Of a stretch of 64,000 nt of DNA, positions 24,884-28,073 are shown one piece after another. The stretch is from sequence record PQ471515.1. One strand, given 5' to 3'. Numbering within the stretch: position 1 is the stretch's first letter; the number at the start of each line of letters is the position of its first letter. Source of the DNA: Escherichia phage Turkey3. The position numbers were made by a program, and so were the translations under genes. A model generated the notes under the pieces. That model saw only the letters and a list, made by a program, of their open reading frames with translations. It was not told where the DNA came from and searched no databases.

Positions 24884-25372
24884 TTATACGGATTCGACGA
24901 TGCGAGCCATCTTCTCCGCTCTGGATGTGGTTTGTTTGTACCACGAACTATCACGCATTTCTTTACCAGCAGTTTTATAATCACCACGACCGAGAGCAGC
25001 CATCGCTTTTTTGAAATTTAAAACTTTTGATTTACCCATTTGGAACACCATAAACCACAATACACGCTGAACCTGTACTGGAGCAGTCATTCCAAATTGA
25101 TCATAGATTGATTTTGCGTCATTGTAAGCGGTCTGAGCATCTTTTATAAGGAGAGCATCAGCTTCTGCTTCAGTGAGTCCATTTTTGAAACTTTCACCCT
25201 TAAGTACAAGGTGACCGTAACCAATGGTATCAAGACCTAGACTGTCTTTATATACCCAAAACTTATCATTTTTAAAATAACCAAGTTTTTTCTGATACGC
25301 AATAGTACCTTCAAATTCTTTAATTTCTTTAAAAAATTGTTCGTCGGTATTTTTGATTTCCCATTTACTCAT
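24884..25372 (-). CDS. e: T4-type lysozyme (endolysin, GH24)
   Basis: EGxxxYxD...LDTIGYGHL ... FQMG ... SxWYxQTxxRA, the same motif order as T4 lysozyme. Confidence 0.85.
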   Translation of the reverse strand: MSKWEIKNTDEQFFKEIKEFEGTIAYQKKLGYFKNDKFWVYKDSLGLDTIGYGHLVLKGESFKNGLTEAEADALLIKDAQTAYNDAKSIYDQFGMTAPVQVQRVLWFMVFQMGKSKVLNFKKAMAALGRGDYKTAGKEMRDSSWYKQTTSRAEKMARIVESV

Positions 25373-25389
25373 AAAGATTTCCTCATTAT

Positions 25390-25397
25390 TATTTATA
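25390..25397 (-). promoter_or_regulatory. Late promoter (TATAAATA) for the lysozyme gene
   Basis: Exact TATAAATA on the minus strand about 18 nt upstream of the lysozyme ATG, with a GAGGA RBS between. Confidence 0.5.
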
Positions 25398-25409
25398 GTA
25401 CTGAAATAT

Positions 25410-28073
25410 TTATTGACATGCCTCTAATCTACGTGCCATTAATTCAGCACGGCGTGTAGTTTGACGATACCAAGCTGAATTTCGAATTTGAGCAGCAGCT
25501 TGCTTGTAGTTACCTTTTGCCATTTCAGATAGCATCATCTTAAATTTCATTACACCACCTTTACCCATCTGGAATACCATTTGACATAGAACTTGTTGTG
25601 CCATGTAAGGTGTTTTCATCTTATAAGAAGCGTAGATTGATTTAGCATCATATATAGCCTTACTACTATCACGAACCAACATATCATTGGCTTCCTGTTC
25701 AGTAATACCACCAGAGAAGTTTTCCCCATTAACGATCAAGTGTCCGTATCCGATGGTTGGGAACCCACGACTGTCCAAATATCTCCAGAATTTACCATTG
25801 CGGTAATATCCTTTAGCTTGTTGATACGCCATTGTTCCTTCATATTCTTTCAATTCAGAAATAAATTGTGAATCACCTGGAACAACTTTCCAATCAATTG
25901 CAGTCTTATCAACATTACCCACATTGTATGATTCTTGTGCAGTAGGTGCTGGAGTACCACCTGAACGTTGTGTTCTTCTACGACGAGGAACATGACGAGA
26001 ACCACGTTGAGAATACCCAGTACCGATAGTTTTAATTTTAGTTGTTACAACTAATTCATCACTATCAACAGAAGGTTGAACAACAGCTTTCGGTGCTGCT
26101 TGGTTCGTTGCTTGTCCTGCAATTAATGTTTTATTTCCCGCTTCAGAACCTGTACCAGTCTGCGATGCGTAGAATAATCCAGGGTCAACTGAACCACTAA
26201 ATCCTAGTACGTTGGCAGAGGTAACTCTTATTTCAAATTGAATAACACCATTAGCTTTACCGATAACTTGACCTTTTTGAACAACGTCTTTATTGAGCAA
26301 ATCTGATTGAATATTATAAAATACAGATTTATATCCAGACTTATGTTGAACCAATAAAGCACCATTAGTGATAACAACTACACCGCCATCTGGAGCTACA
26401 ACATCACCCTTGCACTGTATTTCCCAGCCACTTCTATCAGCTTTACCACCACCACTAGTCGGGACACCTTTCCCCCAATAACCGTATTGGCGAATGGTTC
26501 CACTACACGGCATGAACATATGAAGACCTTCATACGTAATGCTATAACCAGTCATACCAGGATCAGAAGTCATTAAATCTTGTGTTTGAACTTGTTCTGT
26601 TTCTGTTGTATAATTTACATATTGAATTGCTTCAGTGTCCTGTACTGGAGCTAAAGTTGGTGCTACATCATTAGCAGGTTCAGGTTGAACTGGGGATTCA
26701 CTATTACCACTACCACCACCTTGACGTGGAGGTTCAACAGTACTGCCGTGATTCTCAGCATCAACCCAAGCCGATATATCATGTATATGATCATTCAAGC
26801 CAGCAGATGGGGTGCGGAAGTTTGGTGCATTAAATTCAGCAGTACCACTATTACCACCACTGTTAACAGTAAGAGTTTGACCACCACCACTAATAATAGC
26901 TGATGAAGAACCAATAAGATTAGCACTGGTAGCAGCAGAGATTGACGCATTAGAACCAGCAGTTATATCAGTACTGCTACCACTTTGCATACGTAATGAA
27001 GCTGCTGTTACTAAACGTAAATCTGCTCCAGCGTTAATAACAACCTGACCACCAACTTTAGCATCCAATGCACCAACCAAATCTAGTTTAGTGTTTGCAC
27101 CAACACGAGCATTGAAGTCTGCTCCACTTTCAATATTATATGAGCGTCCAGCAACCATGTTAATATCTTGACCTGCACGAATGTTAATATTCTTATCACA
27201 GTGCATTTCAATATCACCTTCACCAGTGAATTTAATACGTGCAGTACCATCACGGTTAATTAAAAGAACATCACCAGAGGCTTCAGATAACAACAACTGT
27301 GCACCACTACGTGTTTTAATTACAACGCCTTCATTTTTACGAGAACCAACACGAGTATCGTTCACTGGGTTATTGAATTGGGTATCCTGATAACCATCTG
27401 GATCTTGATCCCATGTAGGTGCTGTTAATTCTTCTTCTGTGTAACCATCATCAATAATAAAACTGTTACCACGAGGTGAGGAAAGACCATAAACAGTACT
27501 GGTAGTTTGGCGAGTACTACTACGGTTTGCGACACCAGCTTCCTCATCATAAAGTAAGTTTTGTTTTTTCAGACCTGCAATAATTGGCACGTTTGCATAT
27601 TTGTCTTGAGTACTGGTAGAAATTGTATTACGGTCATAATCAGTTACGGGTAATGGCATATCAGTACCAGCATAGTTGCTTATTTCAGTAGCCATCCCAG
27701 GAACCATCGTATTCATACGTTGGTCATAAACACAACCAATCCAATACGCTTGGAATGTTCTTGCTTGTGCAAATATAACAACAACGGTACACCCAACATC
27801 AGGTGGAACCGCCCAAAAACCATATCCCTTTGGATATTGACCATAAGCATCAGCACTTGGTATCCCTGGAGTTTTACCAGCGAATGGAGACATGTATGAT
27901 GCTTCAATCCATGACTCTTTTGAATTTTTATCACTTTGTGAACCTTGAATCCACACTTTTAGCTTACCGGATTTAGTTGGGTCACGGTTATCCATCACGG
28001 TTGCTAGTTGTGGATACGAAGGGTCAAAACGACCCAACTGTTGTTGGGCATATTTCTTACTTGTATCTGCCAT
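25410..28073 (-). CDS. gp5: Baseplate central spike, gp5-like: OB-fold, beta-helix repeats, M23-like region and C-terminal T4-type lysozyme domain
   Basis: N-terminus matches the gp5 OB-fold pattern; central repeats AGxxxxxxAG...; C-terminal 150 aa are a close paralogue of the adjacent endolysin (TIGYGHL, FQMG, WYRQTTRRA). Confidence 0.7.
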   Translation of the reverse strand: MADTSKKYAQQQLGRFDPSYPQLATVMDNRDPTKSGKLKVWIQGSQSDKNSKESWIEASYMSPFAGKTPGIPSADAYGQYPKGYGFWAVPPDVGCTVVVIFAQARTFQAYWIGCVYDQRMNTMVPGMATEISNYAGTDMPLPVTDYDRNTISTSTQDKYANVPIIAGLKKQNLLYDEEAGVANRSSTRQTTSTVYGLSSPRGNSFIIDDGYTEEELTAPTWDQDPDGYQDTQFNNPVNDTRVGSRKNEGVVIKTRSGAQLLLSEASGDVLLINRDGTARIKFTGEGDIEMHCDKNINIRAGQDINMVAGRSYNIESGADFNARVGANTKLDLVGALDAKVGGQVVINAGADLRLVTAASLRMQSGSSTDITAGSNASISAATSANLIGSSSAIISGGGQTLTVNSGGNSGTAEFNAPNFRTPSAGLNDHIHDISAWVDAENHGSTVEPPRQGGGSGNSESPVQPEPANDVAPTLAPVQDTEAIQYVNYTTETEQVQTQDLMTSDPGMTGYSITYEGLHMFMPCSGTIRQYGYWGKGVPTSGGGKADRSGWEIQCKGDVVAPDGGVVVITNGALLVQHKSGYKSVFYNIQSDLLNKDVVQKGQVIGKANGVIQFEIRVTSANVLGFSGSVDPGLFYASQTGTGSEAGNKTLIAGQATNQAAPKAVVQPSVDSDELVVTTKIKTIGTGYSQRGSRHVPRRRRTQRSGGTPAPTAQESYNVGNVDKTAIDWKVVPGDSQFISELKEYEGTMAYQQAKGYYRNGKFWRYLDSRGFPTIGYGHLIVNGENFSGGITEQEANDMLVRDSSKAIYDAKSIYASYKMKTPYMAQQVLCQMVFQMGKGGVMKFKMMLSEMAKGNYKQAAAQIRNSAWYRQTTRRAELMARRLEACQ

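Follow-up and report, generated by a model that had tools for sequence, protein, structure and literature searches.

The 887-residue protein encoded in a jumbo coliphage baseplate cluster is, in the reading we favour with somewhat better than even confidence, the trimeric central spike of a contractile tail: a needle with an HxH iron site, from which a catalytically dead LytM domain and an intact lysozyme hang as tethered cargo. The analysed window, a stretch of 64,000 nucleotides, derives from a jumbo coliphage of Asteriusvirus type that is 99.9% identical to phage WPEC5 and is one of the RaK2/121Q-type jumbo phages with a contractile tail. Such phages are candidates for phage therapy, and the entry of their very large tails through the Gram-negative envelope has been little explored. 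The basic spike layout is essentially already known, as the papers on RaK2 (2013) and CBB (2017) noted the unusual domain order, a central M23 match and similarity among the phage's lysozymes; the atypical architecture relative to T4 gp5 put forward in a preliminary description of this locus is borne out, but was already in print for RaK2 gp078 and CBB_240. Neither paper describes the HxH motif, the lost M23 active site, how old the lysozyme paralogy is, or which protein is the hub.

The open reading frames of the spike (887 aa, 25410-28073) and of an adjacent lysozyme (162 aa, 24884-25372) are exact on the minus strand and are surrounded by baseplate genes:

20909..24370, minus strand: gp6/Baseplate_J-like wedge gene, 1153 aa (PHROG 10646 and 219, 'baseplate wedge subunit')
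24473..24868, minus strand: gp25-like baseplate wedge/sheath-initiator gene, 131 aa (Pfam GPW_gp25, E 1.5e-8)
24884..25372, minus strand: free GH24 lysozyme gene, 162 aa, paralogue of the spike C-terminal domain (PF00959, E 4e-9)
25410..28073, minus strand: gene of the probable central spike, 887 aa, orthologous to RaK2 gp078, CBB_240 and phAPEC6 gp241
28087..30342, minus strand: baseplate hub gene (gp27/Mu gp44 fold, by fold search), 751 aa, separate partner of the spike
30354..30668, minus strand: gp53-like baseplate wedge gene, 104 aa (Pfam Phage_gp53, E 3.4e-4, slightly under cut-off)

This cluster is conserved, with the spike gene placed between the hub and gp25-like genes, and no second spike candidate was found in it. 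The hub identity of the 751-aa protein emerged by fold search only, a sequence search against the PDB having returned no match; as in T4 gp5-type systems, a separate gp27-like partner is therefore encoded, here just upstream of the spike. The gp53-like gene shares an operon with the hub gene and matches PHROG 7145 ('baseplate wedge subunit', E 3e-44), and the 1153-aa downstream neighbour is annotated in WPEC5 as 'Baseplate_J superfamily'. A crude motif scan of the 64-kb window (from a genome of approximately 380 kb) found no PAAR-like ORF.

From its N terminus, the spike comprises an OB-fold, a triple-stranded beta-helix, an M23/LytM-fold domain and a C-terminal T4-type (GH24) lysozyme, an architecture kept in approximately 85 full-length homologues with identity down to 35%:

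27726..28007, minus strand: OB-fold, residues 23-116 (Pfam Phage_base_V, E 7.9e-7, 29.8 bits, cut-off 23.8)
27342..27725, minus strand: neck region, residues 117-244, highly conserved and unfolded in the monomer model
26829..27341, minus strand: triple-stranded beta-helix, the probable needle, approximately residues 245-415 (Pfam DUF2345 at 278-329; pLDDT 75-85)
26742..26828, minus strand: apex-like block, residues 416-444, with HxH at H429/H431 (codons 26781-26789)
26541..26741, minus strand: linker 1, residues 445-511, in which Thr, Pro, Gln and Gly abound and a PANDV motif is conserved
26124..26540, minus strand: degenerate (non-catalytic) LytM/M23-fold domain, residues 512-650
25902..26123, minus strand: linker 2, residues 651-724, whose basic patch RGSRHVPRRRRTQR is conserved and whose pLDDT is low at 660-715
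25413..25901, minus strand: C-terminal GH24 (T4-type) lysozyme domain, residues 725-887 (catalytic E745, D767 and T773)

An AlphaFold2 (AF2) monomer model resolves four confident blocks (approximately 20-115, 245-410, 512-650 and 725-887) with no confident packing between domains (pTM 0.34). The first of these is the N-terminal OB-fold (Phage_base_V) that characterizes T4 gp5-type spikes and docks the spike into the hub. A conserved insert of approximately 130 residues, the neck, separates it from the beta-helix; many of its columns are invariant in the homologue alignment (for example, M120, P125, R148, D208-G210 and W221), and pLDDT falls below 50 across residues 118-203 of the monomer. For the beta-helix, the family profile matches those of VgrG and T4 gp5 in the PDB (E 2e-5 to 5e-3).

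The beta-helix closes with the HxH motif, and 456 residues, including two folded domains, come after H431. Both histidines are invariant in 47/47 aligned homologues within an otherwise variable stretch, where pLDDT in the monomer is low (about 55-64). In the literature, an HxH that closes a spike helix is diagnostic of an Fe apex, an analogy by which the motif is most likely a metal-binding (iron) site; 'apex' may nevertheless be the wrong word, since phage fibres also have HxH at internal positions, at which Fe is bound but no tip is formed. An alignment of this block to 4uhv was discarded as an artefact of the His-tag in the 4uhv construct. Of the two linkers that follow, linker 1 has low pLDDT at 451-459 and 486-511, together with conserved motifs (PANDV, VQxIN and QDL), and its residues 478-501 are predicted to form a strand and a helix; linker 2 conserves G691, S692 and P696.

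The domain between the linkers matches Pfam Peptidase_M23 weakly at 550-607 (E 0.003, 18.1 bits, cut-off 28.7). Residues 480-720 had no match among PDB sequences in a single-sequence search, and a family profile was needed to find one; residues 512-650 adopt the LytM fold of the M23 peptidases, and the structure that matches them best is that of EnvC, an amidase activator that is itself non-catalytic. The HxxxD and HxH zinc ligands and the catalytic His are absent in 24/24 members, so that, as in EnvC and NlpD, a LytM fold stands without metal ligands: the domain is catalytically dead and its M23 active site has been lost. An M23-like pattern lacking HxH had been proposed at about residues 500-620, of which the missing motif stands and the bounds shift to approximately 512-650; HxH is absent from this domain, the invariant copy at 429-431 belonging to the end of the beta-helix that precedes it. 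In the related spike P0105, by contrast, the M23 motif is intact (HPGVD...HCHFE). Most likely, the dead domain would act as a peptidoglycan-binding or positioning module.

Pfam, the AF2 model and structural matches all agree with the earlier proposal that the lysozyme is C-terminal, after the beta-helix and the M23-fold domain; had a profile placed it centrally, this order would have been wrong, and Pfam Phage_lysozyme aligns at residues 765-882. Both lysozymes are GH24 enzymes by profile (PF00959, 42.1 and 37.3 bits, cut-off 22.3) and by the presence of Glu, Asp and Thr. The spike domain retains its active site, and in the free copy the triad E21, D43 and T49 is kept in 17/17 orthologues. No third GH24 copy occurs within the window, although related genomes have matches at three places.

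The two copies had been called duplicates on account of shared strings (TIGYGHL, FQMG and WY(K/R)QTT(S/R)RAE), all of which are present in both. They are indeed true paralogues (BLASTP of free residues 4-162 against spike residues 728-886: 80/159 identities (50%), 70% positives, ungapped, E 9e-57), but not of recent origin. Codon-aligned nucleotide identity is only 56%, and when the two copies within one phage are compared, mean amino acid identity over 16 phages is 50%, compared with 62% among free copies and 57% among spike domains of different phages. Free copies and spike domains form separate clades, the free clade excluding spike domains in 77/100 bootstraps and the monophyly of the spike-domain clade being weakly supported (31/100). 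A recent tandem duplication of the spike 3' end is rejected because identity within phages is lower than that between orthologues, and distant free copies do not group with the domain of their own spike. The paralogy is old, and the free lysozyme is an ancient paralogue of the spike domain. Two distant contigs lack a free lysozyme gene, which is why a recent duplication had been considered.

Whether the free protein deserves its initial label of 'endolysin' is a separate matter. Its orthologue LysUE1 is muralytic in vitro and lyses EDTA-permeabilised Escherichia coli, in keeping with that label. On the other hand, the 162-aa protein has no signal, SAR or transmembrane segment and no hydrophobic N terminus, and its gene has no holin or spanin neighbours of a lysis cassette but sits in the baseplate cluster between the spike and gp25-like genes. 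The likely endolysin of this clade in the literature is a different protein, with transmembrane, LysM and lysozyme segments. The endolysin label is thus unproven; the protein may be an (accessory) endolysin or else take part in assembly at low copy number. Orthologues of it were not detected in virion proteomes.

Two candidate transcription signals flank the free lysozyme and gp25-like genes, the latter beginning 15 nt after the lysozyme stop codon:

25390..25397, minus strand: T4-type late promoter consensus TATAAATA, exact match, 18 nt upstream of the free lysozyme ATG
24444..24467, minus strand: intrinsic-terminator-like hairpin and T-run, a 10-bp stem then CTTTTT, right after the gp25-like stop codon

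The promoter candidate, a consensus match only, sits in the 37-nt gap that follows the spike stop codon, and among the genes of the phage is one for a gp55-like late sigma factor. Across the window, TATAAATA does not occur above chance (5 versus 7.3), nor are scans for sigma-70-type promoters (55 versus 47.7) and terminators (7 versus 5.9) enriched over shuffles; only the positions of the two sites are suggestive. These positions hint that the free lysozyme and the gp25-like gene may form a co-transcribed unit with a predicted late promoter and terminator of its own.

Following from these results, we postulate that the OB-fold plugs into the separate gp27-like hub from the 751-aa gene and that the triple-stranded beta-helix serves as the membrane-piercing needle, with the histidines of three chains forming a six-histidine iron site that would lock or sharpen the helix end as in P2 gpV. 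Beyond it, each chain would go on through a flexible linker of approximately 65 residues to the dead LytM-fold domain and through a second of approximately 75 residues to the intact GH24 lysozyme. Sheath contraction would drive the spike through the outer membrane and deliver this cargo into the periplasm, where three tethered lysozymes could cut glycan strands locally and let the tail tube pass. The spike would then be a functional phage counterpart of an 'evolved' type VI secretion system (T6SS) VgrG, but with a separate hub, and the free lysozyme would be an active muramidase in soluble form, produced late along with the gp25-like protein under a promoter separate from that of the spike. 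Against this reading, a tip loaded with approximately 135 kDa of cargo would be expected to make the needle blunt, and the AF2 monomer gives no placement of the C-terminal domains.

A geometry closer to that of T4, which we regard as possible but rather doubtful, would have the linkers fold back along the beta-helix and place LytM and lysozyme at the needle's base or along its sides, as with the lysozyme domains of T4 gp5, or would have the chain cleaved after the HxH block with the enzyme part bound non-covalently; in either form the bare HxH apex would be the true piercing tip, and the enzymes would be freed only after penetration. T4 gp5 is itself cleaved between its lysozyme and helix, which offers a precedent, and no evidence for a cleavage site was found in this spike. 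Linker 1 would have the reach to fold back, as its approximately 65 residues would extend to approximately 200 Å, about twice the length expected of a helix with approximately 170 residues per chain, and its conserved motifs with the predicted strand and helix suggest packing onto another part; the lack of confident interdomain packing in the AF2 monomer argues the other way. A sharp tip matters for infectivity in P2, where a disordered spike tip halves it, but T6SS VgrG and PAAR proteins work with cargo at the tip.

Two further readings concern the dead domain and the identity of the protein. It is unlikely, though consistent with the structural match to EnvC, that the strictly conserved LytM domain mimics EnvC/NlpD in the periplasm by binding and de-repressing AmiA/AmiB/AmiC, such that host amidases would strip peptide stems as the phage lysozyme cuts glycan; if true, this would amount to a hijacking of host autolysins at entry, by cargo carried beyond the apex of an iron-clamped spike. 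Very improbable, in our view, is a role of the 887-aa protein as another virion-associated lysin instead of the central spike, for example an ejected or internal one with spike-like modules. The CBB authors raised such a doubt about the CBB_240-type protein, which is far larger than T4 gp5 and differs in domain order; mass spectrometry (MS) found a spike orthologue in virions at a coverage of only 4-10%, given without peptide positions, and did not detect RaK2 gp078 in RaK2 virions. The weak signal may be due to low copy number (three per virion), and an OB-fold above the Pfam cut-off, a helix homologous to VgrG and gp5, the invariant HxH, the position of the gene between hub and gp25-like genes in a conserved baseplate cluster and the want of a rival candidate there all speak for the central spike.

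If the tethered-cargo reading holds, a rigid beta-helix needle with a predicted HxH metal site can bear cell-wall-active domains past its end, linking phage needles to type VI secretion, whose VgrG and PAAR proteins bear cargo. Relatives bear an intact M23 or a GH19-like domain at the LytM position, which suggests a swappable cargo slot on the spike. Practical value is modest, the free lysozyme having already been explored as an enzybiotic (LysUE1); the spike-borne lysozyme would be a second candidate.

Orthologues of the RaK2/CBB/phAPEC6 type (58-84% identity) are identical to this spike in length and domain order, and CBB also has an adjacent 162-aa lysozyme (CBB_239). Like T4 gp5, the spike unites an OB-fold, a GH24 lysozyme and a triple-stranded beta-helix in one trimeric assembly, and T4 likewise has a separate gp27-type hub and a free GH24 paralogue (e), located elsewhere in its genome. 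Whereas T4 gp5 runs OB-fold, lysozyme, helix, the order here is OB-fold, helix, HxH, dead LytM, lysozyme, with the lysozyme (725-887) after the helix (245-415) and not between it and the OB-fold; the T4 helix ends its chain as a blunt platform capped by the PAAR protein gp5.4, whereas here it continues into HxH and approximately 455 further residues. The lysozyme subfamily also differs from T4 lysozyme in an insertion of approximately 13 residues that lies between its catalytic Glu and Asp. The iron-loaded spikes P2 gpV and phi92 gp138 share the OB-fold followed by a beta-helix ending in a conserved HxH, but in P2 gpV the motif lies 12 residues from the C terminus and the apex is the physical tip, compared with 456 residues beyond it here.

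'Evolved' T6SS VgrG proteins such as Vibrio cholerae VgrG-3 carry a C-terminal cell-wall hydrolase on the needle into the target periplasm. They share with the phage spike an OB-fold and DUF2345-type helix followed by a linker and peptidoglycan-degrading cargo; their gp27-like hub is fused N-terminally, whereas here it is the separate 751-aa protein, the OB-fold starting at residue 23, and the setting is a phage baseplate, with a pair of cargo domains on the spike of which the LytM one is catalytically dead. In a central spike for a Gram-positive host, the distal C-terminal end similarly carries an enzyme-like cell-wall-degrading domain, but its shaft is a coiled coil, not a rigid beta-helix, and a GlpQ-like phosphodiesterase takes the place of the lysozyme. 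Degenerate LytM domains (EnvC, NlpD, DipM and SpoIIQ) are otherwise cellular regulators or scaffolds, whereas the copy in this spike is tethered to a phage needle.

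The window belongs to an E. coli jumbo myovirus, and a 3.8-kb stretch around the two open reading frames (ORFs) considered here shows 99.9% identity to Escherichia phage WPEC5 (381 kb), 97.6-99.4% to eight further coliphages and approximately 84% to PBECO4, phAPEC6, slurp01 and relatives. Both ORFs, a gp5-like spike and a free lysozyme, lie where the preliminary description placed them, and the spike is matched end to end by a PHROG family with exactly 887 positions. Their surroundings constitute a baseplate cluster with every gene on the minus strand:

minus strand, structural protein, 243/273 aa
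minus strand, gp53-like wedge protein
28087-30342, minus strand, 751-aa protein
25410-28073, minus strand, 887-aa spike
24884-25372, minus strand, 162-aa lysozyme
minus strand, gp25-like protein
minus strand, gp6/Baseplate_J-like wedge protein, 1153 aa
10857-20858, minus strand, giant protein, 3333 aa

The 751-aa protein, annotated 'virion structural protein', was identified by fold search as a gp27/Mu gp44-type baseplate hub, with no match in Pfam or among PDB sequences. At roughly double the size of T4 gp27, it is predicted to carry an N-terminal helix of some 50 residues, and it has two poorly modelled inserts (452-494 and 543-611). The 3333-aa ORF sits directly downstream of the baseplate wedge gene, and MS has placed its phAPEC6 orthologue (382 kDa) among the virion proteins. 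Transcribed divergently from the cluster is a plus-strand block (31429-35548) encoding, per the WPEC5 annotation, a gp55-like late sigma factor and gp47/gp46-like recombination nuclease subunits.

Pfam assigned the following spike residues, all encoded on the minus strand:

23-116, OB-fold (Phage_base_V)
from 278, VgrG-type helix (DUF2345)
550-607, Peptidase_M23, weak match
765-882, Phage_lysozyme

An AlphaFold2 model built from an alignment of 47 homologues resolved four confident blocks (approximately 20-115, 245-410, 512-650 and 725-887), the last two with a pLDDT of about 90, joined by low-confidence linkers. Together, the Pfam placements and AlphaFold2 blocks establish that the proposed domain order is correct: the lysozyme is C-terminal, beyond the helix and the M23-like domain, and no profile placed it centrally. 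This architecture is kept in approximately 85 full-length homologues at identities down to 35%, including those of GAP32, fHe-Yen9-03, pEa_SNUABM_50 and XaC1. Residues 117-244 (27342-27725, minus strand), between OB-fold and helix, are very strongly conserved with many invariant positions and are predicted to be disordered in the monomer model (pLDDT < 50); their folding probably requires trimer formation or contact with the hub. The linker ahead of the lysozyme domain carries a conserved basic patch, QRGSRHVPRRRRTQR, at about residues 685-705 (within 25902-26123, minus strand), with G691, S692 and P696 conserved, which could be a processing site or a membrane or peptidoglycan contact.

The M23 assignment is weak in this spike itself and is recovered at the family level, with PF01551 matching 22 of 24 members (best E 5e-11) and a spike-family profile of the domain finding LasA, SpoIIQ, DipM, zoocin A and other M23 structures. 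Alignment of the family with the intact M23 domain at the same position in a distant relative, P0105, showed that the HxxxD motif, the YxH histidine and the HxH pair are missing from every member, the sole retained histidine being the structural H577. Judged by these residues, the domain is a dead LytM domain.

Directly past the helix, in a stretch that is otherwise variable, H429 and H431 are invariant in 47/47 aligned spike sequences (consensus LNxHIHxH), a motif that the preliminary description had not noticed. Work on P2 gpV established HxH near the end of the spike helix as the hallmark of an iron-binding apex domain, while spikes devoid of it, such as T4 gp5, have a PAAR tip instead. The gpV chain ends 12 residues past the motif; the Turkey3 spike likewise has a conserved block of approximately 12 residues after HxH but then continues for approximately 445 more. 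Because phage fibres, according to the same literature, can also hold HxH iron sites at internal positions, the safe reading is a predicted three-chain metal clamp at the helix end, which may or may not be the physical tip. In P0105 and three other related proteins (P0099, P0087 and P0091), a conserved (R)VPT(H/T)EP...HEN motif follows the helix in place of HxH.

The proposed paralogy of the two lysozymes was borne out: BLASTP aligned free lysozyme residues 4-162 with spike residues 728-886 at 50% identity and 70% positives with no gaps (E 9e-57), the shared strings that had been quoted are present in both, and both score above the Pfam threshold for Phage_lysozyme. At the DNA level, identity over aligned codons is only 56%. 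The similarity is genuine and much greater than chance would give. Residues corresponding to E11 and D20 of T4 lysozyme are present in 17/17 free copies and in 24/25 spike domains, and the one corresponding to T26 in 17/17 and 17/25, respectively; by their catalytic residues, both domains look active. Consistent with this, the purified free-lysozyme orthologue LysUE1, which has the N-terminus MSKWEIK in common, lyses EDTA-treated E. coli. An insertion of approximately 13 residues between the catalytic Glu and Asp, missing in T4 lysozyme, is common to both paralogue families and to enterobacterial lysozymes of approximately 150 aa, probably of prophage origin. Such GH24 proteins (P0187-P0228), from Serratia, Erwinia, Yersinia, Raoultella and Pantoea genomes, are approximately 50% identical to the Turkey3 free lysozyme and, compared with the spike domains, cluster closer to the free copies.

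On sequence comparison, the paralogy is old. Speaking against a recent tandem duplication are neighbour-joining trees that separate free copies from spike-borne domains (a free clade without spike domains in 77/100 bootstraps; the converse weak, 31/100), a mean within-phage identity between the copies of 50% (n = 16 phages with both copies pairable), lower than between orthologous free copies (mean 62%) or orthologous spike domains (mean 57%), and free copies of distant contigs that cluster apart from the domain of the spike in the same contig. These distant relatives (L002-L005) retain the baseplate gene order; between the spike and gp25 genes, L004 and L005 have the free gene and L002 and L003 lack it, which indicates patchy loss or relocation.

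The label 'endolysin' for the 162-aa protein is not established: the in vitro lysis by LysUE1 speaks for it and the context against it, since the protein has no hydrophobic N-terminus and its gene lies in the baseplate cluster. The authors of the CBB study predict another protein as endolysin (TM, LysM and lysozyme; 121Q gp532), and virion proteomes of CBB and phAPEC6 detected the spike and not the small lysozyme. In related genomes three regions match the free lysozyme, and three lysozymes are reported for RaK2. The 37-nt gap past the spike gene holds a perfect T4-type late promoter match, TATAAATA (25397-25390, minus strand), 18 nt ahead of the lysozyme ATG, and the gp25-like gene is followed by a strong hairpin terminator (24467-24444, minus strand); by the position of these predicted signals, the two genes look like a two-gene late unit within the cluster. 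The window holds 5 matches to TATAAATA against 7.3 expected, which is not above chance. The four others (31435-31442, minus; 43935-43942, 45144-45151 and 54870-54877, plus) each share the orientation of a downstream ORF, and three lie approximately 36-48 nt ahead of a start codon (31399, 43990 and 45196). All four are likely late promoters read by the phage gp55-like sigma factor.

As the most likely arrangement, we propose a trimeric central spike whose OB-fold sits in the hub and whose beta-helix forms a needle ending in an HxH metal clamp, after which each chain would carry two tethered domains, the dead LytM module and a predicted active lysozyme. Contraction, shown for P2 gpV to drive entry into the periplasm, would carry the spike there, where its lysozymes would open peptidoglycan for the tube. 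Staphylococcus phage 812 offers a structural precedent for a spike with an enzyme domain at its far end. The main rival uses the same parts with linkers folded back or cleaved, leaving the enzymes flanking the needle as in T4. More speculatively, the LytM domain may mimic EnvC and activate host amidases. P0105 and P0099, metagenomic OB-fold/beta-helix relatives, carry their cargo after low-complexity linkers. At the corresponding C-terminal position P0105 has an intact M23 peptidase (HPGVD...HCHFE) and P0099 a GH19-like domain, a difference which suggests that this position in the spike is an exchangeable cargo slot.

The layout itself is a correct rediscovery, since it had already been described for orthologues: the RaK2 genome paper (2013) noted 'a very unusual domain composition' in gp078 (886 aa), with beta-helix and C-terminal lysozyme, and compared three RaK2 lysozymes, and the CBB paper (2017) reported an architecture differing from T4 gp5, with N-terminal OB-fold, possible central M23 (E 6.5e-4) and C-terminal lysozyme, adjoined by the T4-type lysozyme gene CBB_239. 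Our literature search turned up no published structure of the spike and no paper mentioning its HxH motif or the M23 active-site loss. Overall, the original observation is confirmed and its interpretation supported in part, and the spike is ordinary for its phage group. It differs from T4 gp5, where the lysozyme is central and the helix terminal, from P2 gpV, where HxH lies near the C-terminus, and from VgrG, where the hub is fused, yet it has its working principle in common with all three, and the mechanism proposed here works like that of an 'evolved' VgrG bearing a cell-wall hydrolase.
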